A stretch of 64,000 nt of DNA, taken from assembly GCA_964483295.1 (NCBI GenBank), contig CAZAAD010000004.1, positions 10,782-74,781 on the forward strand, written 5' to 3'. The position numbers and the translations under genes are program-made. Origin of the DNA: an uncultured Gammaproteobacteria bacterium. GTDB taxonomy: Bacteria; Patescibacteriota; Patescibacteriia; Patescibacteriales; UBA12465. The notes beneath the pieces were generated by a model, which was given only the letters and a program-made list of their open reading frames with translations, had not been told where the DNA came from and made no database searches. Shown here in pieces: positions 10,651 through 39,196 of this stretch; position 1 is the stretch's first letter, and every line of letters starts with the position of its first letter.

Positions 10651-11691
10651 TTATTGAACTCGGAAAGTATCAATCATCATCTGATAAATGTTTAGATATG
10701 CCAAGCGGGTACCAATAACGGGGATATAAGAAACGGCATAAATATTTTGTTTCTTGCTATCGGTAAGATAAAAATTTATCCCATCTTTGCTCATAACGCC
10801 CTCCCAGCCATTACCATTTTTAAAACGACCATAGGTATCTATTTCGCTAGAGAAGGTTTCTGCATACCAATCTGCAATCGCTTGATTGTGTGGATTATCC
10901 TGAACAGAAACCTGGAAAAGAGAATTATCCGGCGCAGAAATAATTAAAGTATAACCATTATTTAAAGATTGCTTAGTCCAAGAAGCAGGATATAAAATTG
11001 AGAATTTACTAATTGTATCTTGGTGGACTGCTAACGATGAACTTTCTTCTAGTCTACCCGCTCCAATCGGGTTATAGCCACTTTTAATTTCTGCTAAATC
11101 TAAATAGCCATCCTGATCAGTATCAATTTCTGTGACTATCGTCCTCATGACCACCTCCTCATCATCAGTTAAACCATCGCCATCTGTATCCAAAATTGGT
11201 GTCCATAAAACTTCTTCAACGAGCCCCTCTTCTGGCATTAATTCTTCATTTATTGCTTCCGAAGAAGAAGTAGCGACGTTTTCGTTAGCGGGCGCGCTAG
11301 CTGGATCTACCACCTCTATCGGTGTGGTTGAGGAAGTTGTAGCAGTTTCCGAATTAGCGGTTTCTTCAGTAATTGGCGTTGACACAACCGGAGTCTGAGT
11401 AGCTACTTGATTTACTGGATTATTTTCCGCCTGGGGTTTAATAATAAAACGATAACTTAAATAAATTAAAGCCCCTACTAAAATAATACCTAGGCCAATA
11501 ATTATCGCCCCGACTGATTTCACATTACTTTTTTGTCCGCCTGAACCAGAAAATCCCTGTCCAGAAAGAGTCGGCGCCGAAGAACTGCCCAAGCGAGATC
11601 GATTAGGCATGTTGTGGACTATTAAATCTTGATCAACCTTATTAATAGTCGGGGCACCATTTTCTGATTGAGAGTTCTTCTTATTAAACAT
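10651..11691 (-). CDS. single-pass membrane protein with thrombospondin type 3-like Ca-binding repeats and a C-terminal globular domain
   Basis: N-terminal low-complexity region, TM helix (VGAIIIGLGIILVGALIYLSY), acidic S/T-rich linker, then DTDGDGLTDDEE and DTDQDGYLDLAE repeats. The ATG at 11691 (MFNKKN...) is preferred over the TTG at 11757. Confidence 0.65.
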   Translation of the reverse strand: MFNKKNSQSENGAPTINKVDQDLIVHNMPNRSRLGSSSAPTLSGQGFSGSGGQKSNVKSVGAIIIGLGIILVGALIYLSYRFIIKPQAENNPVNQVATQTPVVSTPITEETANSETATTSSTTPIEVVDPASAPANENVATSSSEAINEELMPEEGLVEEVLWTPILDTDGDGLTDDEEVVMRTIVTEIDTDQDGYLDLAEIKSGYNPIGAGRLEESSSLAVHQDTISKFSILYPASWTKQSLNNGYTLIISAPDNSLFQVSVQDNPHNQAIADWYAETFSSEIDTYGRFKNGNGWEGVMSKDGINFYLTDSKKQNIYAVSYIPVIGTRLAYLNIYQMMIDTFRVQ

Positions 11692-11693
11692 AA

Positions 11694-11855
11694 TCAAATT
11701 ATGAGCAGAAACAGAATAATTATTATCAGCAACATCACTCCGCCTAAAATGAACCAAGCTTTCATGCTTTTCTCACTAGTTTTTGGCATAGCATGAATAC
11801 CTAAAACTGGCTCGTTTTCCTTAATTATAGGAGCCTGATTATCAGCTTTAAACAT
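11694..11855 (-). CDS. possible 53-aa single-pass membrane mini-protein (below the ORF-track cutoff)
   Basis: ATG at 11855 to TGA at 11694 gives MFKADNQAPIIKENEPVLGIHAMPKTSEKSMKAWFILGGVMLLIIIILFLLII. It has the same 'MF..., xHxMPxxS, then TM' layout as the two flanking genes. Confidence 0.35.
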   Translation of the reverse strand: MFKADNQAPIIKENEPVLGIHAMPKTSEKSMKAWFILGGVMLLIIIILFLLII

Positions 11856-11886
11856 AAAAAGTCTATAGTAAAATCATCCTGACTAA

Positions 11887-12645
11887 CTACTGAATGTTGC
11901 CCGGCAGCTTACCGTCCCCATTAGGATTATAACCGCCCCTAACTTCTGTACCATCAGGATAACCATCCCGATCAGTATCAACCACTAAAGGATTGGTCTT
12001 GTATATTTTTACTTCCTCATAATCAGACAAACCATCATTATCAGTATCAATAATATTAGGGTTAGTTCCTAAAGCAGCTTCCTCGTCGTCGGTTAAACCA
12101 TCGCTATCAGAATCTACTGGAACAGCAGGTAACGCTGGGGTTGTTATTTCCTCCTCGCCAGCACTGCCTGGCTCTACTGCGTCTGAAGACGAACTATTCT
12201 CACCCGGCATGACCGGCAAAAAATCAATAAACTCATTATCGGTTGCTGTTTCAGTGGTTGAAGCGGAGACGGTATTACTCTCTTCAATTTCGCCCGTTGT
12301 GGTTGCTTCGGTAATATCGGAATTCACCACTTCGTTTTCTATCGGCAGAGCCTCTAAATCATCGCCTTTAAAAAATTTACTATACGCCAAATAACCTAGC
12401 AGTCCTAAAATTATTACCGACATCATAATAACAGCTATCATAAAACCTTTGCCGCCTTTTTTTTCTGGCTGCTCAGAATTAACATCTAATAAAGAACTAG
12501 AAGGAACGGCTGAATTAGTGCTCTGCGGCATGGCAACCGAACTTCTCATTGGTGGCTGGTTATCAACGGCCTGATCAGTATCGGCAAAAATATCATCAAC
12601 CTGAGAACGGCCCGACTGGTTTTGGTTTTGCAAATTTTCAAACAT
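11887..12645 (-). CDS. single-pass membrane protein with three thrombospondin type 3-like Ca-binding repeats
   Basis: TM helix (FMIAVIMMSVIILGLLGYLAY), acidic linker, then DSDSDGLTDDEE, DTDNDGLSDYEE and DTDRDGYPDGTE, ending GGYNPNGDGKL. Confidence 0.65.
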   Translation of the reverse strand: MFENLQNQNQSGRSQVDDIFADTDQAVDNQPPMRSSVAMPQSTNSAVPSSSLLDVNSEQPEKKGGKGFMIAVIMMSVIILGLLGYLAYSKFFKGDDLEALPIENEVVNSDITEATTTGEIEESNTVSASTTETATDNEFIDFLPVMPGENSSSSDAVEPGSAGEEEITTPALPAVPVDSDSDGLTDDEEAALGTNPNIIDTDNDGLSDYEEVKIYKTNPLVVDTDRDGYPDGTEVRGGYNPNGDGKLPGNIQ

Positions 12646-13047: not shown

Positions 13048-16000
13048 TTATTCTTCAATCACCTCAATAACACATAAACCATCAGAACAAGTTTTTCCAG
13101 TCGGACAAGGACAGCTGGTACTACAAGGACAATCATTATAGGTTTTATTCCCGCGTTTACAGGTTTGGCCACAAAACTCTTGCGTACCAATCATATTTTT
13201 ATCACACTTCCCATCGCCGCAAACATGTGAATATGTAACTGAATCACAATTTTTCTGACAATACGTATTAGTCCCGTAATAATATTGACCATTGTAGGTT
13301 GGTTCAACGCCTACATTAATATTATTTACACCATTATCACATTCTTCTCCCGGAACAGCATATCCACTTTGATTATATATATTGGGCTGAAGGATGCCAT
13401 CGCCACACCAACCACCAAAAGGAGAACAATAGCCGTTAATTTGAGCACAATTATAATGATAGGTAGGACTACTAGTTTCCGGTGAATAAGCACATTCCGA
13501 GCTACAAACGCAAACTGAATTACCTGACACTTGTTGGCAAGTCAAACCTGTCTGACACTGACAGGTATTACCGCCACAACTATCAGTGCCACAGTATCCG
13601 GCCGTCGTCGGGCAAGTAGGAATACAGCTACCACCGACTCCACCACCGGAAGCAGGCGCCTGACAATCAACATAAGCATCGGAACCAACAGGGGAGGTAT
13701 AATTAGCCGGGCAAGATGTTGGCGCAGTAGCCCCAGCTGCACAATAATTATTACTAGGACACAGGGTACAGCTTGTAGCGGTACTAGAATCTGATTTATA
13801 TGTTCCCGCTGGACAAGTTAAACAAACGCCGGAAGATAAATATTTTCCGGCAGGGCAAGTGGTTGTGCTTGGCGCTATTGTTGCTTGCAGCGGTGTCGGC
13901 ACGCAAACACCATTAGTTTCTACCCATTGGCAAACATCGCTGTAATCACAACTATATTTATTAGGCAACTGATCGCAATCAGAAACTACATCTTCGCTTG
14001 TTTTATTAATACAATAACCACCAATTCCTTCGCAGGTAGAGCCTGAAGGGCAAGGAGTAGTGGTTGAACAGGCCGCCGGCCTTAAGCACTGGCCGCTGAT
14101 ATTCATATAACCATCCTCAGCAATACTCCCTAAAGTCGTGCGGCATTTATCCGCTACGCAACGCTTAATAGTGCGGTCTCCATAACAAGTAATCTGTCGA
14201 CGATCATCCCAGCCCGCAAGTTCTGTATTATTTTTTTTACAATCATCTCCTCCACTTACTGTAGTTATGGCGCTAACACGACTATTACAACCGGAAGGGC
14301 AACTAGCTAACGATAGACTACTGGCACTTGAACACATCGGATTATCTAATCTGATAACACTATATCCGATACAATCTTTTTTAGCATTCTCCATGTACTT
14401 AGTATCGTCGCTTCTTGAAGGATAGCAAATTTTAACACTCGCCTGCGTATCGCCGCAGCCAACTAAATTTGTTGAACTGAACGTAGCGGTTTGATATTCA
14501 TTTTTCACTGATGACATCCAAACAGCATAAGTTCCGGGTCTAGTAGCGTCCCCAGACGAGATTCTAACCGTATTTACAGTCTCATTTCTATCCCAACACT
14601 TAACCTGGCAAAGATTATTGACGCAATCATAACCCGTAGGACAAGGGTTGGCGCCGGAACAGGCAATATTAGTTGTTCCTCCTGTGTCTGGTGTGGGCAA
14701 AGAGGGTGGTTCACCGAAATAACTTGGATCACAATCATATTTACAGTTAGACATGTTTTCATACTGTGTCTGACAATATAAGTCGCCACAATACCCGCCG
14801 CCTTCAAGTGGAGACTTAAAGACACAATAGTTATTACTATTTATCGGATAGGGTGGCTCTTCACTAATATTGTTAACAACCGGTGTACTGCAAGCATATT
14901 GATTCTTATAATTACTCGCTTCTGCTGTAGTTACTATATTACTCGTACCGTCACAAGCCTCATAACCATTATTAAAGACACCGCCACGCCCTTCAGTATT
15001 AGGATCCTGTGTCACGCCATCACCACAATAGTTATTAACTCTTAAAACAAAACTTTTAACCGTTGGACTACCATATTCATTTACAGCCTTAATCCGTACC
15101 TCTTGGCCAGTGTGCAAAACAGTCGTTTGCCCTGATAGATAAAATACACCAGGCTCAGCAATGGGATCTTCCACAATTGTTAAGCCTGTTGGCAAGGTTC
15201 CTTCACTTGAATAGGAAACAAAATGGTTGCCCTGGTTTCTAATACCAAGACGACACTTATAGACGTGGTTTAAACGAGATTGGGTTTCACAATTAAAATC
15301 AAGTGTCGGCGGATCAATCTTAACTCTAATCACAAAATTACTAGAAGCGCCGTTGACTGTTAATCTATAAATAGACTCCTTGTCTTCAGTGAAGACCCCA
15401 GAAGTAGAAGTTGATATGATTCCCTGATAAGAAATCTTCTGACGATTAATACCATCAGCTGCTACTGAGCGCACAATTCCAGGGAATCTTAAAATATCTA
15501 TACCTGATAATAAATCTAGGGAATAGCTTGGAGTAGAGGTGTCTCCAGAAACATAAAAACTAAAACTAAAAGGAATGGTCTGATCAAGACGATAAGTATA
15601 CTCATCTGCCTGCCCAAAGGCCGCAGTGGGAGCAATGATAATATTACTGGTAGTAGCACTGCTACTTCCCTTACTATCGGTTACTGTAATAGTTATCGGG
15701 TATGACCCCGCATTACCAGCTTGCTCTGCGTAAATCTTTTTTTGATTAACATCGCTCACGCCTTTAAGAATTGGAGCGGCTGACCAACCAGCCCAGCCAC
15801 TACCCGTAGAAATTGACCAAGTAATTGGATCGCCTTCATTATCAACGGCACGGGCAAAGCCATTAAATTCTCGACCAGTAACTCCCTTTAAGGCTAGGTC
15901 CACTATTTTTGGAGCGGTATTAGTTAAGTTGCCAGTCGCCATAATACCGGTAGCGGTTACACAGTTATCATCGTTCACTCCTGGCTCTAAGCGATAACCC

Positions 16001-16980
16001 AAAGCCGGATTAGAAGCATCTCGACTCTCCATGATTGCGCACAGACTATAAGTAGACCCGGCTTGATTGGCAGTATAAGCTAAAGCATAGCTATTAGCTG
16101 GCAAAGCTAAAGCCGGACCGGCGCCAGTAACAAATTGTTTACTCGTAGCGTTCCAACAAGTTTTAGCGTCGTATCCAGAACAGGCACCAAAACGATTAAC
16201 CGGATCAACGATGGGAGTCTTAATGCCAATAGCTGGTAAGAAAACCTCATTCCAACTCGGCCACAAAGAGGTGGTTTTCCCTGGTAAATAAGTACCAGCT
16301 GCTAACAAAGGATAAACACCGTTTACCTCTTTATATTTCGCCAGACCTTCTCTTATCTCTTCAATTTTACCGATTCTTTTTAAGTCACGGATAACCATGG
16401 CCTTTAAGCTGCCACAAAATAAACCAGTCGGGCAGTCGCCATCAACGACGCAGCTCTTTGGTTCTTTCAATAAACAAGTACCGTTCGCTAATGAACAAGT
16501 TTGATTGGTAGAACAATCAGAGTCTTGAGCACACTTAGTTGCAGAAATAGAACAGGTTGATACTTGATCAGATAAATTATCATTAAATTTCCAATGAGAA
16601 ATGATTTGTCCTAAAATATCAGTCGTTTTACTGCTAGAATCCTGATTATAGGAAATCAAATAAATATTGGTGTAGATTATTTTTTGTGCCGAATCAACAT
16701 GCGCAGCATTAATATAAACAGTGCGACCATCACGCAAAGCTTCATAACCATCAACGGTTAGCGCTTGTGGTGCGCCAGAAAAACCCTGGCTTTGATACCA
16801 ACGGTAGACGCTATAGTGATTAGGATTAGGAATAATGCGAATACCAATAGCATCACTCTCAGATTTGACCTGAGAATTTGCACTGTTGCTAGAAAAAAAT
16901 AGAGTTCCAGCAACTAATAGAACGGCGACGGCCAACAGGCCAGTAACCATTCTGGTTTTATTAAATTTTTGATTGGCCAT
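13048..16980 (-). CDS. giant (1310 aa) cysteine-rich secreted/anchored protein with an internal type IV pilin-like head region, Ig-like repeats and CGDG...ECD repeats
   Basis: N-terminal signal anchor (MVTGLLAVAVLLVAGTLFF) and ~80 Cys by hand count. RDLKRIGKIEEIREGLAKYKEVNGVYP...VDPVN...YALAYTANQAGSTYSLCAIMES is pilin-head-like. YCGDGVTQ...EACDG and WCGDGILQ...EECDNG are Myxococcus-type Cys-rich repeats. Confidence 0.8.
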   Translation of the reverse strand: MANQKFNKTRMVTGLLAVAVLLVAGTLFFSSNSANSQVKSESDAIGIRIIPNPNHYSVYRWYQSQGFSGAPQALTVDGYEALRDGRTVYINAAHVDSAQKIIYTNIYLISYNQDSSSKTTDILGQIISHWKFNDNLSDQVSTCSISATKCAQDSDCSTNQTCSLANGTCLLKEPKSCVVDGDCPTGLFCGSLKAMVIRDLKRIGKIEEIREGLAKYKEVNGVYPLLAAGTYLPGKTTSLWPSWNEVFLPAIGIKTPIVDPVNRFGACSGYDAKTCWNATSKQFVTGAGPALALPANSYALAYTANQAGSTYSLCAIMESRDASNPALGYRLEPGVNDDNCVTATGIMATGNLTNTAPKIVDLALKGVTGREFNGFARAVDNEGDPITWSISTGSGWAGWSAAPILKGVSDVNQKKIYAEQAGNAGSYPITITVTDSKGSSSATTSNIIIAPTAAFGQADEYTYRLDQTIPFSFSFYVSGDTSTPSYSLDLLSGIDILRFPGIVRSVAADGINRQKISYQGIISTSTSGVFTEDKESIYRLTVNGASSNFVIRVKIDPPTLDFNCETQSRLNHVYKCRLGIRNQGNHFVSYSSEGTLPTGLTIVEDPIAEPGVFYLSGQTTVLHTGQEVRIKAVNEYGSPTVKSFVLRVNNYCGDGVTQDPNTEGRGGVFNNGYEACDGTSNIVTTAEASNYKNQYACSTPVVNNISEEPPYPINSNNYCVFKSPLEGGGYCGDLYCQTQYENMSNCKYDCDPSYFGEPPSLPTPDTGGTTNIACSGANPCPTGYDCVNNLCQVKCWDRNETVNTVRISSGDATRPGTYAVWMSSVKNEYQTATFSSTNLVGCGDTQASVKICYPSRSDDTKYMENAKKDCIGYSVIRLDNPMCSSASSLSLASCPSGCNSRVSAITTVSGGDDCKKNNTELAGWDDRRQITCYGDRTIKRCVADKCRTTLGSIAEDGYMNISGQCLRPAACSTTTPCPSGSTCEGIGGYCINKTSEDVVSDCDQLPNKYSCDYSDVCQWVETNGVCVPTPLQATIAPSTTTCPAGKYLSSGVCLTCPAGTYKSDSSTATSCTLCPSNNYCAAGATAPTSCPANYTSPVGSDAYVDCQAPASGGGVGGSCIPTCPTTAGYCGTDSCGGNTCQCQTGLTCQQVSGNSVCVCSSECAYSPETSSPTYHYNCAQINGYCSPFGGWCGDGILQPNIYNQSGYAVPGEECDNGVNNINVGVEPTYNGQYYYGTNTYCQKNCDSVTYSHVCGDGKCDKNMIGTQEFCGQTCKRGNKTYNDCPCSTSCPCPTGKTCSDGLCVIEVIEE

Positions 16981-16991
16981 AAAGAAAAAAA

Positions 16992-19900
16992 TTATCTAAC
17001 CACACAGGCGCCTGCTACACAAACCTGATTTTCAGCACAGGCTATCTTAGTAATCATTATTTCATTTGATTTTGAACTTTCATTTCCGGCGCTATCCAAG
17101 GAAGACAGGGCAAAATAATTAGCACCATCACTTAAATTATTGGCCGTTAGTGACAGCGCTGTTGCTCCTGATTCAGAATCAAAAGATTCTCCATAGGCAG
17201 CGCTGCGCGTACCCCGATACAACCGGAAGGACGAAGCACTAGGATCGGTGTGGGTCCAAGTAAAGCGATATGAGTCACATTTATTAACAGAGGTTAAACC
17301 TGATGGAGCCAGAGGTGCTGTTTGATCAGTCGGGATAGCCGACTCCATATTGCTAAGTGTGCTTTCGGTACGATTAGCAGAAATAACAGAAATACGGAAA
17401 GAATAGGCTTGATTATTTTTTAAACCAGAGATAGTCGCCGCACACGCAAATGCGGTGCCATTCCAATCGCAAGCATCTGTGGCAGTAAACTCCCGAGAAA
17501 TACTAGCTGATTTACCGGTTTCACTATAATAAACTTTAAAAGAAATAGATTGAGCGCTACTCGAACTCCACTCTACTAGAATCTCGCCACCGGTTTTTTT
17601 ATCAGTAGCGGCTGTTACTTCCCCAGCTGGCAAAACCTCTTCTCGGAAAAAATATGATTCCTTTAAAACATTCCAAACACAAATTCCATCAACTAAACCA
17701 TCGCCATTACGATCAGTGCCACAAGCCGAACCAGCCGCTGAACAAGCGGAGCCATCGGCACTGCAAGCTAAAGTCGTACTCTGCCCTCTAATAACCGCTC
17801 TATCAATAATGGCAGGCAAATCATCAACAGTGCCTGGTTGTCCAGCATCACGACAGTAATAAAATTTATAACTAAAGTCCGTACATGGTCCACCTAAAGC
17901 GCCGTTACATGTATCCGTCCAAGGAAACCAAGTGCCATCACTATTAACTGGCGGCCAAGGATTATTACAAATAAAGACGTAAATATTGCTAGCTTTAGAT
18001 AAATCATCACCTATTGAAAAAGCGTTGGCACAATTTTGTGTACAAGTAGCATCAGAACAAACACAGCTAGGACTATAGTCGGGATTATTCAAGAAACGCT
18101 CCATACTTATAGTCGCCGTTAATTTAGTTTCACCGTCAGTAACACCGCTAGCGGCCGCAACAAAGGCACGATTCATCTCTAAACCATTGATGTTTGTTAG
18201 AGAAGCAATAGAAGTATCTAAAATATTAAATTTCCACTCCCAGAAATAACCAGTAACCGGCTGCAAAATCTGATTGTCGGCACTAAAAGCCCAGGCGATG
18301 AAAACCTTATCTTTATCTTGAATAGTATCAAATGTTTTATCGGTCGGATTATCATCCTTCTCTACCAAACTATTATCCGTAGTTTTAAACAAATAGGAAG
18401 CCGGTAATAATTTAACCGAACTAATGGCGCAAACTCCGGAATTAGTTGCCTTATCTGATAAAGTTTTAAACTGAATAATATGAGAATTTTTGTAATAGGT
18501 GGTATTAAAAGCTAAACCAGCTCCCTCTAGTCCGTCTAGCCCGGTACCATTTAAACCAATGCCATCAACACTAGTTACTCCGAGCTGACTGTTTAATTCC
18601 TCATCTCCTTTAACAACTAGGAAATAGTTAGTGTCTGGAGACATTAACTGCCGTGGCATAATGTTGGCAACGGTCATACTACCACTATGACTACCAGAAA
18701 CAATTACTGGCGAGGCGCAATATAATTTACTCGGACTTGGCGGCACAGCAATCGCGCTTTCCTGGTTTGGGAAAAATACAGCTACTAACCTATTAACCGA
18801 CAGCCTGGCCTGAGAAAATAATTTTGTAAACCAGCTATCTTTTTTAAGTTGATTATTAAAATCATAAGCCATTGTCCCCGATGGGCAGACTCCTGAACCA
18901 TAATCCATTTCCTTAATCAATAAAATATTAGGACCAAGAGTAGTTATGTCCATTAATTGGTCAAAGGTGACACTCAAAACAGCATTGCGGCAAATATTAT
19001 TAGCACCATTAACCGGTAAAGTTTCTAAAACATTAGGACGTGCCTGACAACAAGTATCAGCTCCGCAACCAATGGTTTCCGGATTACCGCAATCACCATC
19101 ACTTTTGCAACCACAGCATAAACCACGACTCGCTCCGGAACAATTACCCTGATCGGCTTTACAATATAAATATGGCGCCTCTTCTGTTTGGCAAGCAGTG
19201 GGATTAGACGGACTGCAACAACAGGTACCGCAATCCGAGATACTGGTAGCTGCAGCGCCGCCATCAACTAAGCAGGCCATGCCCGGATAATTACAAACAC
19301 TAAAATCACAAGTAGCCATCATGTAGGGCGATGAACAATTTTTACCAGCACCGCCATAATTGCCACTGCAACGAGTTTGACAAGTAGTTAGACTATTAAA
19401 AGTTCCAGTCGTTCTTGGGATAGCTTCGCAAGTAGCAGGATCGCCTGGTGGCGTCGCAGCCGGGTCGCCACAATTATAGTAGGCGCAATAACCCGCATCG
19501 GCCCCAGAAGCAATTTGTTCTCCGCCTTTACAAGTAGAAGATGTTTGGTCAAAGCAACAAGAAGGCGCGGCCGTGCATTCATCTTTGCGGCCATTAAATA
19601 AAGAACAGAAATCTACGCCAGCAGTACAACCAGTAGTACAAGCATCAACATCTTTAAAATAACCAAGCTTCACTGGCGTTGAAGAAGCGCAGCTAGTTGA
19701 GTCGGTAGCTGAACAATTAAAGTAGCCACAATAGCCATAATCCGGACTAGCGGGATTACTAGAAACTGCTGTACCAGAACCGCCACGACAAATATCATCA
19801 TCTAACGACGGAGTTCTTCTAGCATCAAAGCAACAAGCCGCACTATGATCAGCGCATGAAGACTGAGTCTTTAAGCCAGTACAGTCAGTACAAACTCCTT

Positions 19901-22766
19901 GAGGATTTTCAGAGGTAATGCTGCAATATTGTCCGCTTTTACCAGAGCAATTACAAGCAGCATCATGCTCGGCTTGAGTGCTGCCGACATTGGCACAGCC
20001 AGAACACTGTCCTAAGCCAGCACCATCATTCGCCTGGTCACTACCACAAGTACCAGAACATTCTAAAGGAGCACAACAATCTTGTGCACTGTTACCAATA
20101 CGGCAACAGCAATCGCAACTAGGGGCGTCATAAGCAATACAGCGATCAGACGCTGCTAAGTCTGGGTTATCTTCACACAAAGAGCCAGCGGGACAAACTG
20201 TTTTAGACACGCAACGACCGTCAGTCGCCACTCTTTCACAACTTAAACCATCCGCACAGACGGAACAAGTAGAATTTTTATCAACACAAATATTATTCAA
20301 ACCTCGCTCCCAATTATCCGGACAGGAGGTTTGGGTAGAAAATTGCCAATTACCATCTTGGTTACAAGTCACATTAGCCTGAATATTCTGCCCACCTAAA
20401 GTAAGCGTCCTAGCTTCAGGTAAACTACATAAACCATCTGCTCCTGATTTTACACATTTATTAATAGAAGCATCATAAAAACAAGACGAAGGAAATGCGC
20501 TGCAGCCAGCAACCGAGGCGCAAGAATAATCACAGCTCCCTACTACTTTTTTATTGTTACCAGCATAAGGAGAACAGACGCCAGTAGTATTAGGACAGAA
20601 AGAGTCAACCTGACAAGCACCGGCGTAGGCAGCTAAAGTAGAACAGCTTTCCGTTGGGTCAACCACATCTTTTTTGACATAACCCGTACTAAAATTCCAT
20701 TCAAAAACTGAGTTAGGAATATCAATTAAACAATCGGTTAAACTAGCGACGCAGCGTCCTTTTTTATAAGTATTACTCGGGCAACAAACCTGACTGCCGC
20801 CACAATTTTCATTAGTCACACAACTGCCAACCTCAAAATTCAGTTCATTCCCCCATTCACCTGACTTTACTACTCGGACTGGACCAGTAACCGCACCTTC
20901 AGGAACGGAAACCGCCAAAACGTCTGCGCCATTTTCCTGATTAACTGTTCCAGAAATATTCTTATTAATACTAAATTGGGCTAAGCCATTACCAAAATAT
21001 TCTCCATATAATTTTACTGGCGTAGAAACAGCTCCCTGCTTTGGTTCAATTTTACACAGACTAGTCTTTAAAGAAGCAGCACTATCAACGTTAAAAGAAT
21101 TAGGATTCAATTGACTAGTATCAATAGCGCCGCCGGCCAACTCTACACGAATATAGTGATAGCCGTTAACCGCTGAGGCAGGAACTTTAACAATAATTTG
21201 ATTATCACTCCAAACCGAACTAGCGCAAACTGCTGGAAAAACATAATCTGCTTCCGCGCTACCAAAATAAACCTTAGAATTACCACGCGCGCCACCAAAA
21301 CCACTGCCAATTATCGTCACATACTGACCGGCGCGACCACTAGCAGGAGAAAAGGAAACAATAAATGGGCCATCTTTAGGATCAGCCTCTTTCGTAAAAT
21401 ATAAATAATTACTTTTCTCTTGATTACCGCCTAACGTACTAACCACAAAGCTAGTCGCTTCACCTGATCTAATATTGGGTACGCCCGCGTTACCAGCTAA
21501 ACCACTAGGGTGGTTAAAACTAGAGTTAAGAGCCTGCACGCCAGTCTGATAAGTACCGAAATAAGCTTTACCAGAATAAAGACTAACTCCTTGATATGTG
21601 GCGACTGCCCCTAAACCTCCCTGGCCAGGAGTTAATTTACACAAACCAGGTCTCACAATAGTGTTAGCAATAAAGTCTGGTAACTGTGGGCCATATTCAT
21701 TATTAGTAACATCTTCTTTGCCGTCCTGACGAATGACTTTAATTGCGCCACTCGTAACACCACTAGGAATGGCAATAATTATTTGTTTATCACTCCAAGA
21801 ATCAATACAAATCGGATTAATTTCTGAAGGACTTCTACCAATTCTATCACCTCCTAAAAAGATTACTTGGCTAACGGCTGCATCATATTCCCCAAAACCC
21901 TGACCAAAAATAGTTAAAAAATTATCAGCTGCACCATTAGGTGTGTTTTGATTACAAATAGTATTACAACCAGCGTCAGACTGACAGGATTTATTTATAT
22001 CTTCCTGGCAGAATCCACCTGCTGGGCTAATTCCCGTAATAACTGGCGGGCCAGCACAAGTACAAGTATCAGGATCACAAGCTAAAAATCCTGAGCACAG
22101 GCTATTATCAGCATCACAAGTCGGAGTGCTATCATCAGCATCGCAAGAAGACCCTGCCTCACCTCGGGGCTGACAAGTACAATCAGCGGCACAATAATCC
22201 TGAGGGGCGCAAATATTATCATCTGCCTGACAGCCTCCTAAAATAGAACTGGAATCACAGTATTCTTCCGGCGGATAACTAGTACAATCAGAGCCAACGC
22301 AGCCGCCCCAAGAACCGGCGGCACATAGCATCGAACCATTGCAGCCACACGCTCTTGTACTGCCATCAACACAACCACTTTCACCATTCGTACCATTAGT
22401 AGCATTATGCAACCTGTTAAGAACAAAGGAGGCGATGGCCCAGGACGACAAGATAATGCCCAAACCAATAACGGCGCTGATTAATAATTTTTTGGCTTTG
22501 GAAATTTTTTCTTCTTCCCCTCCAGAGGTCATCCACAAAAAGCCAGCATAAATGATTAAACCTACAGCAATAACACCAAGCAAGCCAAGAGCAATATTAA
22601 TAATACGTCCAGCAATGGCTCGCGGATCACTACCTGACAAAGAACCTCCTAAACCAGAAGAGACCTCATCGGTTCCAAAATTCTGCGCAAATACTAAACG
22701 AAAAGCCAGTATTCCGCCAAATACCACTAAAACAGACAGTAATTGTTTCAATATTTTCTTAGACAC
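16992..22766 (-). CDS. giant (1924 aa) cysteine-rich surface protein: signal peptide + TrbC/VirB2-like pilin module + IPT/TIG-like, Cys-repeat, Ig-like and two FN3-like domains
   Basis: Uninterrupted 5.8 kb ORF with ~126 Cys by hand count. The N-terminal ...IIYAGFLWMTSGGEEEKISKAKKLLISAVIGLGIILSSW is paralogous to the upstream gene. IPT-like: PVITGISPAGG..., PFIVSFSPASGRAGQYVTIIGSGFG. FN3-like: GEILVEWSS...FKVYY, YRFTWTH...FRLYRG. Only a GTG start at 22766 retains the signal peptide. Confidence 0.85.
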   Translation of the reverse strand: MSKKILKQLLSVLVVFGGILAFRLVFAQNFGTDEVSSGLGGSLSGSDPRAIAGRIINIALGLLGVIAVGLIIYAGFLWMTSGGEEEKISKAKKLLISAVIGLGIILSSWAIASFVLNRLHNATNGTNGESGCVDGSTRACGCNGSMLCAAGSWGGCVGSDCTSYPPEEYCDSSSILGGCQADDNICAPQDYCAADCTCQPRGEAGSSCDADDSTPTCDADNSLCSGFLACDPDTCTCAGPPVITGISPAGGFCQEDINKSCQSDAGCNTICNQNTPNGAADNFLTIFGQGFGEYDAAVSQVIFLGGDRIGRSPSEINPICIDSWSDKQIIIAIPSGVTSGAIKVIRQDGKEDVTNNEYGPQLPDFIANTIVRPGLCKLTPGQGGLGAVATYQGVSLYSGKAYFGTYQTGVQALNSSFNHPSGLAGNAGVPNIRSGEATSFVVSTLGGNQEKSNYLYFTKEADPKDGPFIVSFSPASGRAGQYVTIIGSGFGGARGNSKVYFGSAEADYVFPAVCASSVWSDNQIIVKVPASAVNGYHYIRVELAGGAIDTSQLNPNSFNVDSAASLKTSLCKIEPKQGAVSTPVKLYGEYFGNGLAQFSINKNISGTVNQENGADVLAVSVPEGAVTGPVRVVKSGEWGNELNFEVGSCVTNENCGGSQVCCPSNTYKKGRCVASLTDCLIDIPNSVFEWNFSTGYVKKDVVDPTESCSTLAAYAGACQVDSFCPNTTGVCSPYAGNNKKVVGSCDYSCASVAGCSAFPSSCFYDASINKCVKSGADGLCSLPEARTLTLGGQNIQANVTCNQDGNWQFSTQTSCPDNWERGLNNICVDKNSTCSVCADGLSCERVATDGRCVSKTVCPAGSLCEDNPDLAASDRCIAYDAPSCDCCCRIGNSAQDCCAPLECSGTCGSDQANDGAGLGQCSGCANVGSTQAEHDAACNCSGKSGQYCSITSENPQGVCTDCTGLKTQSSCADHSAACCFDARRTPSLDDDICRGGSGTAVSSNPASPDYGYCGYFNCSATDSTSCASSTPVKLGYFKDVDACTTGCTAGVDFCSLFNGRKDECTAAPSCCFDQTSSTCKGGEQIASGADAGYCAYYNCGDPAATPPGDPATCEAIPRTTGTFNSLTTCQTRCSGNYGGAGKNCSSPYMMATCDFSVCNYPGMACLVDGGAAATSISDCGTCCCSPSNPTACQTEEAPYLYCKADQGNCSGASRGLCCGCKSDGDCGNPETIGCGADTCCQARPNVLETLPVNGANNICRNAVLSVTFDQLMDITTLGPNILLIKEMDYGSGVCPSGTMAYDFNNQLKKDSWFTKLFSQARLSVNRLVAVFFPNQESAIAVPPSPSKLYCASPVIVSGSHSGSMTVANIMPRQLMSPDTNYFLVVKGDEELNSQLGVTSVDGIGLNGTGLDGLEGAGLAFNTTYYKNSHIIQFKTLSDKATNSGVCAISSVKLLPASYLFKTTDNSLVEKDDNPTDKTFDTIQDKDKVFIAWAFSADNQILQPVTGYFWEWKFNILDTSIASLTNINGLEMNRAFVAAASGVTDGETKLTATISMERFLNNPDYSPSCVCSDATCTQNCANAFSIGDDLSKASNIYVFICNNPWPPVNSDGTWFPWTDTCNGALGGPCTDFSYKFYYCRDAGQPGTVDDLPAIIDRAVIRGQSTTLACSADGSACSAAGSACGTDRNGDGLVDGICVWNVLKESYFFREEVLPAGEVTAATDKKTGGEILVEWSSSSAQSISFKVYYSETGKSASISREFTATDACDWNGTAFACAATISGLKNNQAYSFRISVISANRTESTLSNMESAIPTDQTAPLAPSGLTSVNKCDSYRFTWTHTDPSASSFRLYRGTRSAAYGESFDSESGATALSLTANNLSDGANYFALSSLDSAGNESSKSNEIMITKIACAENQVCVAGACVVR

Positions 22767-22775
22767 AAATTTATA

Positions 22776-25439
22776 TTATTGGCAGTTGCCATTTTCATCT
22801 AAATTATTAGACGGGGAACCAAAACAGCAAGAAGGATTCTCCCAAGTCGCCTCGCAGCTCGGACCAGCGCTTGGTTTAAAACAGTTCTGATAAACATCTT
22901 TAACACCTGAACCGGCTTGAGCAATATAGGAAAACGATTCGGCAAATAAAGAATGTTTTACTTTAGTAACGGTTAAGTCGGCTACACCATCCAGCGGAGA
23001 GACATCCCTATCTTCAGAAATCATCCAATATCCCAAAGGAGAAGCGGCCGCGCTCTTTAAATTAATAAATTTATGCTCGGTTGCGGTTTGCCCATTATCC
23101 ATAATCGCACTCCCAGACTTAAGAGTGCTAGTCATCATTAAAGTATTAAAAGTTATTTCTACCGGGTCAGTTAAAGCAGTAATATCGGTTTGTCCATTAT
23201 TCGGAGTTATAGAAATAATACGTGGGGATGATAATTCTTTCTGATCGTTTACAAAGAAGGAAAAACGGTAACTATCTTTATTGCTGACCGTACCGTCATT
23301 CTCATTAAAATAAGTAATCGGTCCATCAGCCGCTGTGTCACGATTACCATCCAAAGAATTAAAGGCTGTATCTGTAATACCACTTAGAGCCGCGATGTTA
23401 GCTAAGGGATAATTTCTCTGTCCGGCGTCTTGGCAAGTTCTATAACCAAGCGGACCCATCACGCAAGATTTGTGCGGGCTAAAAGCGGCGCAATCTTGAT
23501 CGCTAGCACAAGTTTTTAAATCAGCCGCCTTAATTTCTAGGGCTAAATTACTATTAGGCGGCAGGCAATAAACCTTTTCGCCACAACCATTAATACCGCA
23601 CTCATTATCAGAAATAAATTCTACAGTTTTATAACCATTAGAAATTATGAATTGACCATTAACATAATTACCAACACAAACACCACCAGCACATTTATAT
23701 GACAAGCATTCTGAGTTAAGGGTGCAAGAAGCACCAGCCGCCTTACCACCAACAGCATTAACTAAACGTATATAAGGAGCAACGTCAGCAGCAAACCCGG
23801 AGAGAGTTGTGGGATTCATCGCTTCATTGAATGTTACTTTTATAGCAGCATTCATCGCCACGTCTTTTTTATCATTTACCGTGTACGTTATTTTCTGATC
23901 AGCCCCGCCGGTAAAAGGAGTTAAGCCCAGCACATTATTATTGCTAGTAGCAAGCACTAAGCTGTTGGCAGCGCTACCGGCGACCTTAGCCGTTAAAGAA
24001 ATGCGACTAGCCGTGCGAGAAACATTAATATCAGGATGACCACTTAATTTAGCTTGAATGTCAGCGGCCTGATTGTCAGTATTGCATACGCCGGCACGAA
24101 CAATAATATTATTATTTTCTCCCGTAGCAGCAAAAATATATTTAATATTGCCAACCGTTAAAGTGTCCGCGAGTTGTTCAGGAGAAATCGCTATTTCCCA
24201 AGAACTACCAGCCGCATGACTATCCACTTTCAAACTAAGGTAACCTTCAAAATTTACTTCATTATCAGCAGTAAAATCAGCTACTCCCAACAAAGCATTA
24301 GTGTTGCGATTAAATAACTGAGCGCGATTAGGTTCGTCTGCCGGAACAGCAACCATAAAACGATTAATAACGCCGTGATAATTTAAAACCACTTCCGCTT
24401 CCGGCGATACACTGTTTAACTTAGCGGGTGAGTATATTCGCGGACAACCATTAACAAATATTTCGGCAGTAGCATTAGCCGGAGCGACGCTCACGCCAAC
24501 TTGGTCTTTAATATTATCAGGACGAGGGAATAAAAAATTTGCGACTACTTGAGGAGGTGTTAAATCTAAACGAGAGCCAACCTGAAATCCCCAGACTAAC
24601 TCACTGGCACTACAAGTTCTAAACATAGACGAACCATCCGCCTTCTTTAAATCAGAAGTGATTTTAACAACATAATCAGTATTAGTTTCCGGGGAACCAA
24701 GATAACTTAAAGGAGAAAAAATCATCGTTCTCTTATCTGCTGATAAAGAAACAGCTACGTCAGTCACATTTGAATTTGCGGCCGGACAAGTGGCGCCACA
24801 AGCATCATTTAAGTCTTGTTTATATATTCTAATTACTTTAGGATTAATCAAAGAACAGGCGCCATTATCACAAGCGCAAGAAGCGCCACTAGCATCAACA
24901 CAAGCTGAAGCTGGATCTAGTTCTTCTTTAAAAGTCACGATAATAGACGTATTACGCGGAACATCACTCTGGTTATTTTCTGGATAAACTGTCTGCACTG
25001 AACAGGAGCCAATAGCTCCTAGGCCAGCACTAAAATTATTCCCCGAATAGGCTCCTGGTTGATTAACTCCATTACCAGAAATAGCACCTAATAATCTGTT
25101 CAGTAAAAAAGTAGTGATTGACCAGGCGGACAAAATAATAACCAAACCAATAATAGCATTCCTCAGAATATTTTTTGCGCTTCTAATTCTCTCCTCTTCG
25201 CCACCGGAAGTCATCCACAAAAAGCCAGCATAGATTATTAATCCTAACACAACAACGCCAAGTAAACTTAGCGCTATTTGAATAATGCGCCCAACAATAG
25301 CTCGCGGATCGCCTTGTGCTAAAGCAATCGTGTTGTTAACTGGGTCTAAGCCCAAGTCTTGCGCTAGAGATATTTTGGCAGACAATAACACTACTGATGC
25401 CAAAAAAACGCCGAAAATTATCTTAAATCTTTTCAACAT
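22776..25439 (-). CDS. large (887 aa) surface protein: signal peptide + TrbC/VirB2-like pilin module + three SbsA/Big-like Ig domains and Cys-rich segments
   Basis: MLKRFKIIFGVFLASVVLLSAKISLAQ signal, then ...IIYAGFLWMTSGGEEERIRSAKNILRNAIIGLVIILSAW. Ig-domain starts: VYPENNQSDVPRNTSIIVTFKEELD, VNDKKDVAMNAAIKVTFNEAMN and ITPNNGQTDITALTDPVEITFNTLM. Confidence 0.85.
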   Translation of the reverse strand: MLKRFKIIFGVFLASVVLLSAKISLAQDLGLDPVNNTIALAQGDPRAIVGRIIQIALSLLGVVVLGLIIYAGFLWMTSGGEEERIRSAKNILRNAIIGLVIILSAWSITTFLLNRLLGAISGNGVNQPGAYSGNNFSAGLGAIGSCSVQTVYPENNQSDVPRNTSIIVTFKEELDPASACVDASGASCACDNGACSLINPKVIRIYKQDLNDACGATCPAANSNVTDVAVSLSADKRTMIFSPLSYLGSPETNTDYVVKITSDLKKADGSSMFRTCSASELVWGFQVGSRLDLTPPQVVANFLFPRPDNIKDQVGVSVAPANATAEIFVNGCPRIYSPAKLNSVSPEAEVVLNYHGVINRFMVAVPADEPNRAQLFNRNTNALLGVADFTADNEVNFEGYLSLKVDSHAAGSSWEIAISPEQLADTLTVGNIKYIFAATGENNNIIVRAGVCNTDNQAADIQAKLSGHPDINVSRTASRISLTAKVAGSAANSLVLATSNNNVLGLTPFTGGADQKITYTVNDKKDVAMNAAIKVTFNEAMNPTTLSGFAADVAPYIRLVNAVGGKAAGASCTLNSECLSYKCAGGVCVGNYVNGQFIISNGYKTVEFISDNECGINGCGEKVYCLPPNSNLALEIKAADLKTCASDQDCAAFSPHKSCVMGPLGYRTCQDAGQRNYPLANIAALSGITDTAFNSLDGNRDTAADGPITYFNENDGTVSNKDSYRFSFFVNDQKELSSPRIISITPNNGQTDITALTDPVEITFNTLMMTSTLKSGSAIMDNGQTATEHKFINLKSAAASPLGYWMISEDRDVSPLDGVADLTVTKVKHSLFAESFSYIAQAGSGVKDVYQNCFKPSAGPSCEATWENPSCCFGSPSNNLDENGNCQ

Positions 25440-37697: not shown

Positions 37698-37979
37698 ATG
37701 GCAAAAACATATCAAATAAAAAAACTCGTCTGGTTAGTTAAAGATGAGGCTAGTACCCGTTTTCATGTTGAGCAAGATGACTACTTCGGAACTATTGCTA
37801 CTATTATCAGCCTACTTAAACAAACCTTAAAAGAAAATCCGGCTAAACAACTGCCGGATTTTATTGCTACTTTAAATAATTTAGAGCGTGACTTGGTTTG
37901 GTTACAAAATAATTATCAGATTAGCCCAAGAATAAAAAAGAAAAATAAAATACCAAAAGGCAAAGACAAAAGCCAATGA
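37698..37979 (+). CDS. hypothetical 93-aa protein with a basic C-terminal tail
   Basis: ORF starting 2 nt after the radC stop, with no recognisable motif. Its last ~64 nt overlap the convergent membrane-protein gene. Confidence 0.4.
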   Translation: MAKTYQIKKLVWLVKDEASTRFHVEQDDYFGTIATIISLLKQTLKENPAKQLPDFIATLNNLERDLVWLQNNYQISPRIKKKNKIPKGKDKSQ

Positions 37980-39196
37980 TCAAACATCATTAAAATTATC
38001 ATTGCTACAACAACTGCTACCGAGAACGACTGTCGACGACTATCTCGCGCTAAAAAAGAAAGAAATAAAATTAATCCCAAAAAGGCAAACAACCCACTTT
38101 CTGCAAACGCCAGAATAAAAGCATTGTGCACCGGTTGATTAAGATAATTATTGGGTCGGCCGTTTAGCACTGCCTCTTGCACATAGTTGCCTGTCCCTAT
38201 CCCGAATAAGGGATTTTTTTTAATCATTTCTTCGGCATCCGACAAATAATCAATCCGTTCACTCAAAGAGGCCTGTTCTAATCGGGTAGCAGCATCTAAG
38301 CGCGTAAACACAAGTTCTCGATACGGAAAAACCGCTAACACAAATAGAATAACAGAAAAAAAGGAAACCGCTAAAAAGCGCTTTAAAACCCAACGATCTT
38401 CATTTTTTATAATAGCAATTAACAGACAAACCATGCCGACGGCATAAGCTAGCCAAGCCGCCCGAGAAAAAGAAAAAAACAGAGCAGCTAAAGATACAAA
38501 ATAGCTAAAAAATAAAAGTAATAATCCCCAAACATGAATCTGGGAATTGATAATTTTTTTGCGCGCTAATAAAAAAGCGGAAAACAATAAAGCAAAAACC
38601 AAAACTCCGCCTAAAATATTAGGATGATCTAGGCCGCCGTAAGCTCTAAGCCAGCGACCCGTGGTCGTTTCAATAACCGAGGAACCTAGTATCTGCGGAT
38701 CATGACTAGCAATACCTAAATATTTAGAAGCAAAGGTTTTTTGACTTAAAAACTGCCAGACGCCCAGGGCAGCATGTAAAAAAATACTTGATAAAAAAAC
38801 ATAAAGCGCTCTGATACGATTAAGACAGCTTTCTTGATAGGCAACATGATTCATTCCCTCGCGTAACAAATAAAATAAACCCAAACCGCCCAGAAAAATG
38901 AAATAGCGATGAGCGGCTAATAAAGTATCGGGAGCAAAAAAGAAAGAAATGAGAATGGCTATTTCTAGGATTGCTAAAAAATACCAAACTGGCGGAGTCT
39001 TTTTATCTTCATCGCGCCGGATTAGCTGATAGACAAAAAAACAAATTAAAGCCAACAGTAAAACCAGATGACTAACATACAAGCTAATCTCGTTAAAATT
39101 ATTAGTGTCTGCTCGCAAAATTAATTTAGTCTGCCAAGGAAGCAAAAAGACAAAGAGCAGTAAAAATACTTCAGTTAATTTTCGTAATGATTTCAT
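37916..39196 (-). CDS. O-antigen ligase / Wzy_C-family polytopic membrane protein
   Basis: About 10 TM segments with FSFSRAAWLAYAVG and PVHNAFILAFAESGLFAFLG motifs. The ATG at 39196 (MKSLRKL...) is preferred over the TTG at 39223. Confidence 0.65.
   Translation of the reverse strand: MKSLRKLTEVFLLLFVFLLPWQTKLILRADTNNFNEISLYVSHLVLLLALICFFVYQLIRRDEDKKTPPVWYFLAILEIAILISFFFAPDTLLAAHRYFIFLGGLGLFYLLREGMNHVAYQESCLNRIRALYVFLSSIFLHAALGVWQFLSQKTFASKYLGIASHDPQILGSSVIETTTGRWLRAYGGLDHPNILGGVLVFALLFSAFLLARKKIINSQIHVWGLLLLFFSYFVSLAALFFSFSRAAWLAYAVGMVCLLIAIIKNEDRWVLKRFLAVSFFSVILFVLAVFPYRELVFTRLDAATRLEQASLSERIDYLSDAEEMIKKNPLFGIGTGNYVQEAVLNGRPNNYLNQPVHNAFILAFAESGLFAFLGLILFLSFLARDSRRQSFSVAVVVAMIILMMFDHWLLSLPFGILFFFFILGLI

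Follow-up and report, generated by a model that had tools for sequence, protein, structure and literature searches.

Large cysteine-rich extracellular proteins have been described in the CPR Peregrinibacteria, where they were proposed to provide rigidity or to mediate attachment (Anantharaman et al., 2016; PMC4736985). Their genes are clustered and lack functional annotation; the products exceed 1000 aa, carry signal peptides, contain about 6-7% Cys overall and were reported to be weakly similar to the Myxococcus Cys-rich repeats (PMC4736985). The giant protein analyzed here, encoded in a 64-kb window (the whole 64,000-nucleotide stretch of DNA under study), answers to the same description: it comes from a CPR genome, is longer than 1000 aa, has an export signal and a Cys content far above the proteome mean. 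The comparison is between descriptions, and places the protein in a descriptive class rather than in a homology family. The source organism belongs to a different phylum, the Cys-rich core has no NCBIfam or Pfam match, and the giant, with its VirB2-like anchor, is a syntenic orthologue present in single copy.

That anchor links the protein to a second described system. The N-terminal 120 residues resemble the Mbov_0395 pilin-like conjugal transfer protein and, more broadly, the T4SS_pilin (PF18895)/VirB2-TrbC-like proteins of CPR and Mollicutes. Canonical VirB2-type pilins are only about 100-120 aa long, whereas the pilin domain of the giant bears a putatively extracellular extension of about 1800 aa.

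Two further parallels concern the core. Eukaryotic Cys-rich spacers, such as the EGF, furin-like and TNFR/ephrin-receptor-like domains, embody the same concept, in which disulfide-locked modules of 30-90 aa serve as rigid spacers, but they have no sequence or fold match in the core, whose CCFD unit is a helix/hairpin module of about 85 aa with 10 Cys. In plexins, PSI domains alternate with IPT/TIG domains, and the giant may likewise set small disulfide-rich modules beside IPT/TIG in a large extracellular protein; the Cys patterns differ, however, and there is no Pfam PSI match at E ≤ 10, making this an analogy only.

Architecture of the Giant Protein

The gene lies on the minus strand, as do all features below, at positions 16992..22766 of the window. 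It starts with GTG and, according to the ORF list and translation, encodes 1924 aa with 126 Cys, or 6.5% of residues, whereas most other ORFs of the window have about 1%. An artefactual or non-coding reading of the ORF is ruled out by a 226-member family and conserved synteny.

Residues 1-120 (22407..22766) comprise a signal peptide and a two-helix VirB2/TrbC-like pilin domain, as judged from Pfam, NCBIfam and hydrophobicity. The signal peptide spans approximately residues 4-27, with likely cleavage between VFA and QN, and the pilin-domain transmembrane helices are predicted at about 53-79 and 93-116; these three are the only hydrophobic segments of the protein, all within residues 1-117. The T4SS_pilin family matches residues 51-115 with 39.9 bits (cut-off 26.6), an assignment that holds for the N-terminal anchor only, and the NCBIfam model for the pilin-like conjugal transfer protein matches the N-terminus at E=1.7e-8 with 34 bits, under its 40-bit cut-off.

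The anchor is followed by an N-terminal Cys-rich region recognized from the Cys map (residues 128-246, 22029..22385, 18 Cys), which is partly related to module M0 of the core (hhalign probability 94.6%), and then by a region of IPT/TIG-type Ig-like domains (residues 247-641, 20844..22028). Pfam TIG (PF01833) matches residues 467-553 at E=1.1e-13 and 51.5 bits against a cut-off of 20.9, a membership that applies to this flanking region only. Beyond the core lie a Big_5 bacterial Ig-like domain (residues 1242-1298, 18873..19043; PF13205, 24.9 bits against a cut-off of 23.6), a third, smaller Cys-rich region with 12 Cys and no Pfam match (residues 1561-1700, 17667..18086; Cys map), and a fibronectin type III-like domain (residues 1723-1798, 17373..17600; Pfam fn3, 23.5 bits, slightly below the cut-off of 25). 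The C-terminal region is the least conserved portion of the protein in the table of identities to orthologues. The Pfam domains that flank the core, TIG, Big_5 and fn3, are of extracellular types, and the core itself probably sits outside the membrane. Searches of the giant protein revealed neither a lectin nor an enzyme nor any known binding domain.

Modules of the Cysteine Core

A preliminary description of this DNA had placed about 80 of some 126 Cys in residues ~649-1260, and a direct count gives 79 of 126 in residues 649-1260, which correspond exactly to nt 18987-20822. The peptides that it quoted are all present in the translation, with nucleotide ranges off by a few bases only. Cys makes up 12.9% of the core and 3.6% of the remaining protein.

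The core is a mosaic whose modules always follow the same collinear order: M0, M2, CCC1, zero to three copies of CCFD, and CCC2. Module M0 (residues 642-700, 20667..20843) has 6 Cys in the pattern C-x5-C-G-x4-CC-P...G-x-C...C, followed by SVFEW.FST; it is present in 121 of 153 family sequences and is modeled with an AF2 pLDDT of about 79-86. The next segment, a variable linker designated M1 (residues 701-741, 20544..20666), is not recovered in relatives by profile, and relatives carry 6-Cys mini-modules inserted at its position; AF2 models the linker around residues 683-705 as disordered (pLDDT <50 at model positions 48-70). Module M2 (residues 742-875, 20142..20543) is a beta-rich, Cys-rich domain with an AF2 pLDDT of 91-97 and no PDB fold match, and its C-terminal half, M2b, is recovered in 83 of 153 family sequences. 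CCC1 (residues 876-961, 19884..20141), with the pattern C-x-CCC-R-I...DCCAPL-x-C-x-G-x-CGSD...CSGC...ACNC..., is found in 112 of 153 sequences, and every one of its Cys is invariant among 28 diverse relatives. It is also the best-conserved part of the protein, at 55-96% identity to orthologues, ranking first among the regions in most comparisons and first or close to first in the others.

Two tandem CCFD units follow (unit 1, residues 962-1050, 19617..19883, AF2 pLDDT ~80-94; unit 2, residues 1051-1136, 19359..19616). As first quoted, they covered residues 969-1047 (nt 19626-19862) and 1062-1133 (nt 19368-19583); the true start of each lies one Cys earlier, at C962 and C1054, which brings each unit to 10 conserved Cys. 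Their proposed homology is borne out by BLASTP with composition correction (E=4e-6) and by reciprocal profiles, each of which recovers the other unit (E=2.8e-14 and 1.2e-16). The consensus is C-x8-C-x6-CC.D-x6-C.GG-x~17-GYCAYY.C-x7-C...P...G.Y-x5-C-x3-C; each of the 10 Cys is at least 93% conserved, the aromatic residues of GYCAYY.C are conserved too, and AF2 together with the alignment describes an ~85-aa mixed helix/hairpin module. The CCFD unit is a real tandem module that had not been filed before.

The core ends with CCC2 (residues 1137-1245, 19032..19358), the most widespread module (139 of 153 family sequences), which has invariant Cys and the pattern CGTCCC...L-x-C-x-AD-x-G-x-CSG-xx-RGLCCGC-xx-D-x-DCG...GCG-x-DTCC-x-ARP. 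CCC1 and CCC2 had been proposed to share a triple-Cys start. The strings are indeed there, at residues 883-910, 1178-1196 and 1208-1220, and both triplets are invariant across the 28 diverse relatives, but homology of the two units is unproven: BLASTP gives E=0.04, hhalign gives a probability of 28% (E=6e-4 in the CCC register), and the two HMM profiles do not cross-match. A second repeat pair is thus not established, and the view of the whole core as a new repeat family gives way to a fixed-order mosaic of different modules in which CCFD alone is repeated.

M2b, CCC1 and the CCFD units are variously present or absent among relatives, and two AF2 models of the core are confident (mean pLDDT 81.4 and 79.7). 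Together with the collinear order, these observations are best read as pointing to modules that would fold independently.

Relation to Known Domains and Folds

The preliminary description could assign the core to no known domain, and extensive searches agree. Six fragments spanning all Cys-rich parts matched no Pfam family at E ≤ 10; the good matches to EGF, DSL or furin-like domains that would have overturned the preliminary reading did not appear. Neither the whole protein at E ≤ 0.1 (EGF, DSL, furin-like, TNFR, PSI, granulin and others) nor 28 family members at E ≤ 1 matched any established Pfam Cys-rich family, and NCBIfam, searched with the whole protein at E ≤ 0.1, matched only the pilin-like N-terminus, with no Myxococcus cysteine-rich repeat or other Cys-rich model. 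Core profiles A2-A5 reached a best E of 0.12 against PDB sequences, a match judged spurious. Foldseek found no PDB match at E ≤ 0.001 for either AF2 model; the best matches of model 1 were PSI domains, at non-significant values (E ~3-9.4, probability 0.10-0.21, 30-38 aligned columns). A BFVD search gave no match, and no modules are shared with the neighboring Cys-rich 1310-aa and 887-aa proteins. A known Cys-rich domain as the identity of the core is rejected on the Pfam fragments, NCBIfam, PDB profiles and Foldseek alike.

Family, Conservation and Selection

An exhaustive search recovered 226 cluster representatives. Almost all of them are giants, 1600-3800 aa long, that share the VirB2-like pilin N-terminus. 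This search supersedes a word-index homologue search that had found four relatives only; the word-index search with the CCFD alignment missed even known members, and its negative result is uninformative. The relatives come solely from Patescibacteria/Falkowbacteria-type MAGs and are named "hypothetical" or "IPT/TIG domain-containing" in public records; public assemblies have no exact match to the window protein on record, and the literature on Falkowbacteria and Patescibacteria Cys-rich proteins yielded nothing specific to this family.

Conservation is concentrated in the cysteines. Among 16 orthologues, down to ~40-50% identity, 77 of 79 core Cys are invariant, against 71 of 533 (13%) other core residues, and an alignment of 28 diverse sequences has 53 invariant columns, almost all Cys, Gly or Pro. 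The core is at least as conserved as the remainder of the protein. Comparison with the orthologues in loci L003 and L004 gives dN/dS of ~0.05-0.1, values that are only rough because dS is saturated (>1). Found once per locus and always in the same position, the giant gene behaves, in these comparisons, as a slowly evolving core gene, unlike a typical variable adhesin.

Gene Neighborhood

The giant gene is the middle member of a tight operon. Its upstream partner (22776..25439), separated by 9 nt, encodes an 887-aa protein with the same type of pilin-like N-terminus and Big_5 domains (Pfam) and is syntenic in all loci. The downstream partner (13048..16980), 11 nt away, encodes a secreted protein of 1310 aa that has 80 Cys and Ig-like domains (Pfam, synteny); it is syntenic in the closer loci, and an Ig-domain protein holds its position in the distant ones. 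Two proteins with TSP3 repeats of the calcium-binding type (10651..12645; Pfam TSP3_bac, E=6e-18 and 8e-5; synteny) end the conserved block, which reads SPase-HisRS-RelA/SpoT-pilin/Big_5-giant-Ig/Cys protein-TSP3. The order is the same at 36 genome loci and on four metagenome or assembly contigs, wherever the contig reaches far enough, and distant family members share it.

A Proposed Disulfide-Bonded Stalk and Its Alternatives

We favor a model in which the core forms the middle, extracellular part of a giant surface protein, made of independently folding, disulfide-bonded stalk modules, and in which the family is specific to one Patescibacteria (Falkowbacteria-type) lineage; we give the whole a probability of about 0.6. 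Sec would export the protein, the signal peptide would then be removed, and the N-terminal two-helix hairpin would anchor it in the membrane. Since the hairpin would hold the protein there, residues from ~120 to 1924 would lie outside the cell. The core would form a string of small modules, M0, M2, CCC1, two CCFD units and CCC2, each folding on its own, and all of its ~78 Cys would pair into ~39 intramodule disulfides, presumably the work of the MdbA-like/VKOR pathway that is common among CPR bacteria. The resulting stalk would be compact, rigid and resistant to proteases, and would separate the IPT/TIG domains near the membrane from the Big_5, beta-rich and fn3 domains farther out. With its operon partners, the giant may build a conserved surface structure, whose most plausible use would be to contact a host cell or substrate.

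The core had been described as either disulfide-knotted or metal-binding, and its composition favors the former. An even number of core Cys occurs in 87 of 115 relatives (range 26-125, with 78 in this protein; binomial p=3e-8, to be read knowing that the sequences are related and the envelope boundaries approximate). This parity and the invariance of the Cys lend indirect support to pairing, and disulfide bonds most likely hold the core together. In the competing metal-thiolate model, the Cys would be ligands of an extracellular region that binds or sequesters Zn, Fe, Cu or Fe-S, with CC/CCC motifs like those of metallothioneins or zinc ribbons and with thiols kept reduced in an anoxic habitat. 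Such a region would fit the extreme Cys conservation and the motifs of the core, which include 10 CC, two CCC, six CxxC and five CxC, but even counts show no preference for multiples of four (66, 74 and 78 are common), only two of 612 core residues are His (0.3%), and the residues other than Cys that are invariant in 28 sequences include neither His nor Glu but chiefly Gly, Pro, Leu, Asn, Ala and Arg, along with two Asp. Metallothionein-like proteins are small, contain ~30% Cys and few or no aromatic residues; the core, embedded in a 1924-aa protein, has far less Cys and 6.1% aromatic residues (F+Y+W), among them those conserved in GYCAYY.C. The probable location outside the membrane also speaks against metal. 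AF2 confidence fits both models, because AF2 folds zinc sites without metal too, and correlated Cys loss across 71 CCFD units offered no usable variation for identifying disulfide partners because the conserved Cys almost never change. On balance, we consider metal binding quite improbable.

The means of oxidation bear on the same choice. No Dsb, MdbA or VKOR gene was detected in the 64-kb window by Pfam among 20 further ORFs scanned, and the window has no thioredoxin-type CxxC ORF, [WFY]CxxC occurring only in ORFs read by eye as UvrA and prepilin peptidase; this lack of a thiol oxidase gene counts against disulfides and in favor of metal. So does the typical habitat of these bacteria, anoxic groundwater, where extracellular thiols might remain reduced. 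An MdbA-like oxidoreductase, often adjoining VKOR, is enriched in CPR bacteria (PMC6744442), and the question of oxidation raised in the preliminary description therefore already has a plausible answer.

Some of the cysteines might instead pair between chains, cross-linking copies of the giant, or the giant and its Cys-rich partners, into a covalent envelope lattice or filament, S-layer-like or pilus-like on the VirB2-like N-terminus, instead of a simple monomeric stalk. The tight, universally syntenic operon, with two adjacent genes for the same pilin-like N-terminus and a third for a protein with 80 Cys, would suit such an assembly, as would strong purifying selection on the giant core gene and the odd core Cys counts in 28 of 115 relatives. 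Even counts dominate nonetheless, each CCFD unit is self-contained with its 10 Cys, confident monomer models suggest that modules would close on themselves, and a Pfam scan or reading by eye of the window ORFs (about half by eye only) turned up no T4SS assembly genes. We regard intermolecular cross-linking as rather unlikely. A bolder extension, which we find doubtful and quite improbable, is that the operon encodes an undescribed surface organelle of Falkowbacteria-type Patescibacteria, a host-contact device in which pilin-like N-termini would polymerize or cluster and Cys modules would form covalent cross-links, or else bind metal or sulfide, in anoxic water. Its candidate components are two VirB2-like pilin-hairpin fusion proteins, the third Cys-rich secreted protein and the calcium-binding TSP3 proteins.

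The variant-specific surface proteins of Giardia, an organism of low-oxygen habitats, contain ~12% Cys, and this similarity in Cys content and surface location, together with module content that varies between relatives, could suggest a rapidly diversifying variable coat or host-range determinant. The giant, however, lacks CXXC periodicity, a multigene family and rapid variation: it has one copy per locus at a fixed position, its core is at least as conserved as the rest, with CCC1 the best-conserved segment, and dN/dS is ~0.05 (a rough value). A variable coat is therefore already disfavored and very improbable.

Implications

Cys-rich giant surface proteins in CPR and the MdbA/VKOR route have already been published; because the general phenomenon is in the literature, the advance is incremental rather than conceptual.

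The ultra-small CPR/Patescibacteria are believed to live in attachment to other cells, yet few of their surface proteins are understood. The giant gene evolves slowly and belongs to a surface operon conserved at every family locus examined, and its core holds at least five module types that domain and structure databases do not recognize. Defining these modules would supply annotators with new domain models, and, if the operon does encode a surface organelle, CCFD, CCC1 and CCC2 would be the first members of new folds among extracellular domains. At ~85-175 aa, the modules offer a compact target for asking if dozens of disulfides are really made outside the cell by a bacterium of anoxic groundwater.

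Modular Organization of the Cysteine-Rich Core

The ORF at 16992..22766 on the minus strand translates into a giant surface protein of 1924 residues and 126 cysteines. Its core, residues 649-1260 (exactly nt 18987-20822), holds 79 cysteines, or 12.9%; the remainder of the protein has 3.6%, and most of the window's other ORFs have about 1%. The dense core of the preliminary description is thereby borne out, and all peptides quoted there are found in the protein, their nucleotide ranges being off by a few bases at most.

Module limits were set by profile coverage and iterative searches with each module across 153 family sequences. From N- to C-terminus, the core comprises M0 (residues 642-700; 6 Cys; present in 121/153), a variable linker, M1 (701-741; 5 Cys; unrecovered in relatives), M2 (742-875; 16 Cys; its C-terminal half, M2b, present in 83/153), CCC1 (876-961; 15 Cys, C876 perhaps being part of M2; 112/153), two CCFD units (962-1050 and 1051-1136; 10 Cys each; CCFD is present in 44/153, with 71 units overall), and CCC2 (1137-1245; 16 Cys; 139/153). 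The order M0-(M2b)-(CCC1)-(CCFD x0-3)-CCC2 is fixed and collinear in all sequences; the most frequent architectures have no CCFD at all, and the giant's own arrangement is found in 11 of the representatives. This collinear but variable content qualifies the earlier proposal of a new repeat family: CCFD is a repeat, no other module is, and taken together the modules make the core a mosaic.

The homology of the two CCFD units, proposed from the sequence, is confirmed by BLASTP (composition-adjusted E=4e-6), and each unit is found by a profile seeded with its partner, at E=1e-14 to 1e-16. The best definition of the unit puts its start one Cys ahead of the one first drawn, with the consensus C-x8-C-x6-CC.D-x6-C.GG-x~17-GYCAYY.C-x7-C...P...G.Y-x5-C-x3-C; each of its ten cysteines is at least 93% conserved. 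The AlphaFold2 model gives it short helices at the N-terminus, a helix bearing C-x3-C at the C-terminus, and two hairpins (CCFD/C.GG and GYC.Y.NC). Both CCC units exist and their triplets are invariant across relatives; kinship between them is at most hinted at (BLASTP E=0.04; no cross-hits between HMMs; hhalign probability 28%, though aligned in the CCC register). M0 is akin to part of the giant's N-terminal Cys-rich region (hhalign 94.6%). A ~33-aa, 6-Cys mini-module (CD.D-x5-C-x6-C-x3-L.C-x4-C.C) lies between M0 and M2 in relatives P0123, P0037, P0064 and others, in 0 to at least 4 copies; the giant's N-terminal Cys region (residues ~200-245) is made of the same mini-module.

Comparison With Known Domains and Structures

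A whole-protein Pfam scan matched T4SS_pilin (51-115), TIG (467-553) and Big_5 (1242-1298), with fn3 (1723-1798) slightly under threshold, and nothing in the core. Six fragments that together cover all Cys-rich parts of the giant matched no Pfam family at E<=10, 28 family members scanned one by one gave no relevant match, and NCBIfam recognized only the pilin-like N-terminus. Four profiles (5 to 44 sequences each) found no credible match among PDB sequences. AlphaFold2, run with family alignments, gave confident models of residues 872-1256 (mean pLDDT 81.4) and of residues 636-890 (79.7; beta-rich and >90 over 735-885, with a disordered linker at ~683-705). In Foldseek, neither model had a PDB match at E<=0.001: the top matches of the former were semaphorin and plexin PSI domains (E=3-6, ~30 columns) and those of the latter were noise (TM ~0.1); a BFVD search returned nothing. 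Since Pfam, NCBIfam, PDB and Foldseek place these segments in no established Cys-rich family, the original statement that no domain can be assigned holds, and the core modules are new in being recognized by no domain or structure library.

Family and Genomic Setting

When 1.84 billion cluster representatives were searched exhaustively with an HMM, 226 relatives emerged at E<=1e-3 (143 at E<=1e-30), whereas a word-index search found 4 with the giant and 0 with the CCFD alignment; word-index negatives on such Cys-rich sequences are unreliable. The representatives are almost all 1600-3800 aa long, 123/153 share the N-terminal pilin-like domain, and public databases call them "hypothetical protein" or "IPT/TIG domain-containing protein."

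GTDB species genomes, when scanned, yielded 36 loci, all in Patescibacteria/Falkowbacteria-type MAGs and including the complete genome CP066698.1; at the nearest locus, the core is 86% identical. Wherever the contig reaches far enough, the loci share a block of signal peptidase, HisRS, RelA/SpoT (opposite strand), a ~890-aa pilin-like/Big_5 protein, the giant, a Cys-rich or Ig-domain protein, two TSP3 proteins, ClpP and SecD/SecF. Distant members lacking CCFD or CCC1 are flanked by the same block, and the gaps between the three large genes in the window are 9 and 11 nt; the giant is thus a single-copy, vertically inherited part of a conserved surface operon. Loci L003-L006, L010, L012, L020-L024, L026, L028, L032, L034 and L035 carry "uncultured Gammaproteobacteria bacterium" titles along with their Patescibacteria-syntenic block, and one contig of 1.3 kb is binned in a "Rheinheimera sp." MAG; the former are likely placeholders and the latter a binning contaminant. 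In MAG contig CAYMGT010000018.1 (L001/L026, 4167-11043, plus strand), the orthologous gene is split into four overlapping ORFs, so protein P0003 is a truncated gene call, for which frameshift or assembly errors are the probable cause.

The 887-aa protein (22776-25439, minus strand), whose gene precedes the giant's by 9 nt and is syntenic at all related loci, combines the giant's T4SS_pilin-like N-terminus with three Big_5 stretches. On the downstream side, the secreted protein at 13048-16980 (minus strand), of 1310 aa and 80 Cys, has only weak Ig matches in Pfam/NCBIfam; by eye, the "CGDG...(E/A)CD.G" and "CPAG.Y...C..CP" spacings in its C-terminal half recall Myxococcus-type and ephrin-receptor-like Cys repeats. 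Neither of these Cys-rich neighbors contains the core modules. Two TSP3_bac (calcium-binding thrombospondin-type-3-like) repeat proteins (10651-11757 and 11887-12645, minus strand) end the surface-protein block at every locus. Elsewhere, a 1004-aa protein (52918-55932, plus strand) looks like a tandem-ATPase fusion: it has an MshEN domain and matches T2SSE (PilB/GspE-type secretion ATPase) over two stretches. Two Wzy_C (O-antigen-ligase-like) membrane proteins lie at 4886-7228 and 37916-39223 (minus strand); the former, which also carries fused TPR repeats, weakly matches PglL_A (protein glycosylation ligase), a hint that surface proteins may be glycosylated.

State of the Cysteines and Possible Role

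The only hydrophobic segments of the giant, a signal peptide and two helices joined by a Lys-rich loop, lie within its first 117 residues; from this layout, VirB2/TrbC topology and the positive-inside rule, we infer that residues ~120 to 1924 are extracellular. Among 16 orthologues from the loci, 77/79 core cysteines are invariant, compared with 71/533 other core residues. The non-Cys residues that are invariant in 28 diverse family sequences are mainly Gly, Pro, Leu, Asn, Ala and Arg, along with two Asp. Conservation of the core equals or exceeds that of the rest of the giant (CCC1 highest, fn3 end lowest), and dN/dS against the two nearest orthologues is ~0.05-0.1 in every region, rough values because dS is saturated. 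This slow evolution and the single-copy synteny disfavor a variable coat of the VSP type.

Across 115 relatives, core Cys counts range from 26 to 125 and are even in 87 (p=3e-8), with no preference for multiples of four. Together with the extracellular placement, near-absolute Cys conservation, scarcity of His and acidic ligands, confident monomer models and cassette-like modules, evenness maintained through module gain and loss points to small autonomous domains with every Cys in a putative disulfide. Metal binding by thiolates would suit a probably anoxic habitat, the disulfides themselves being putative, but is improbable given the Cys-count parity and a composition with 0.3% His and no invariant His or Glu in the relatives' cores. 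Slightly less doubtful, if still unlikely, is intermolecular cross-linking into a lattice or filament, a variant whose appeal lies in the layout of the operon and its two pilin-like anchors.

Disulfide-bonded domains of this kind would make up a rigid spacer, with TIG near the membrane on one side and the Big_5, beta-rich and fn3 regions farther out on the other. How so many cysteines might be oxidized, a puzzle raised in the preliminary description, has a published candidate answer: CPR genomes are enriched in MdbA-like oxidoreductase and VKOR (PMC6744442; bioRxiv 10.1101/335083), which could plausibly oxidize the core; neither is encoded in the 64-kb window. Searches of the giant revealed neither a binding nor a catalytic domain, and its context and a Peregrinibacteria precedent (PMC4736985) suggest that it may serve in attachment or as an envelope scaffold. 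The family is conserved and lacks annotation; the kind of object, a giant Cys-rich extracellular CPR protein made of disulfide-type spacer modules, is already known.
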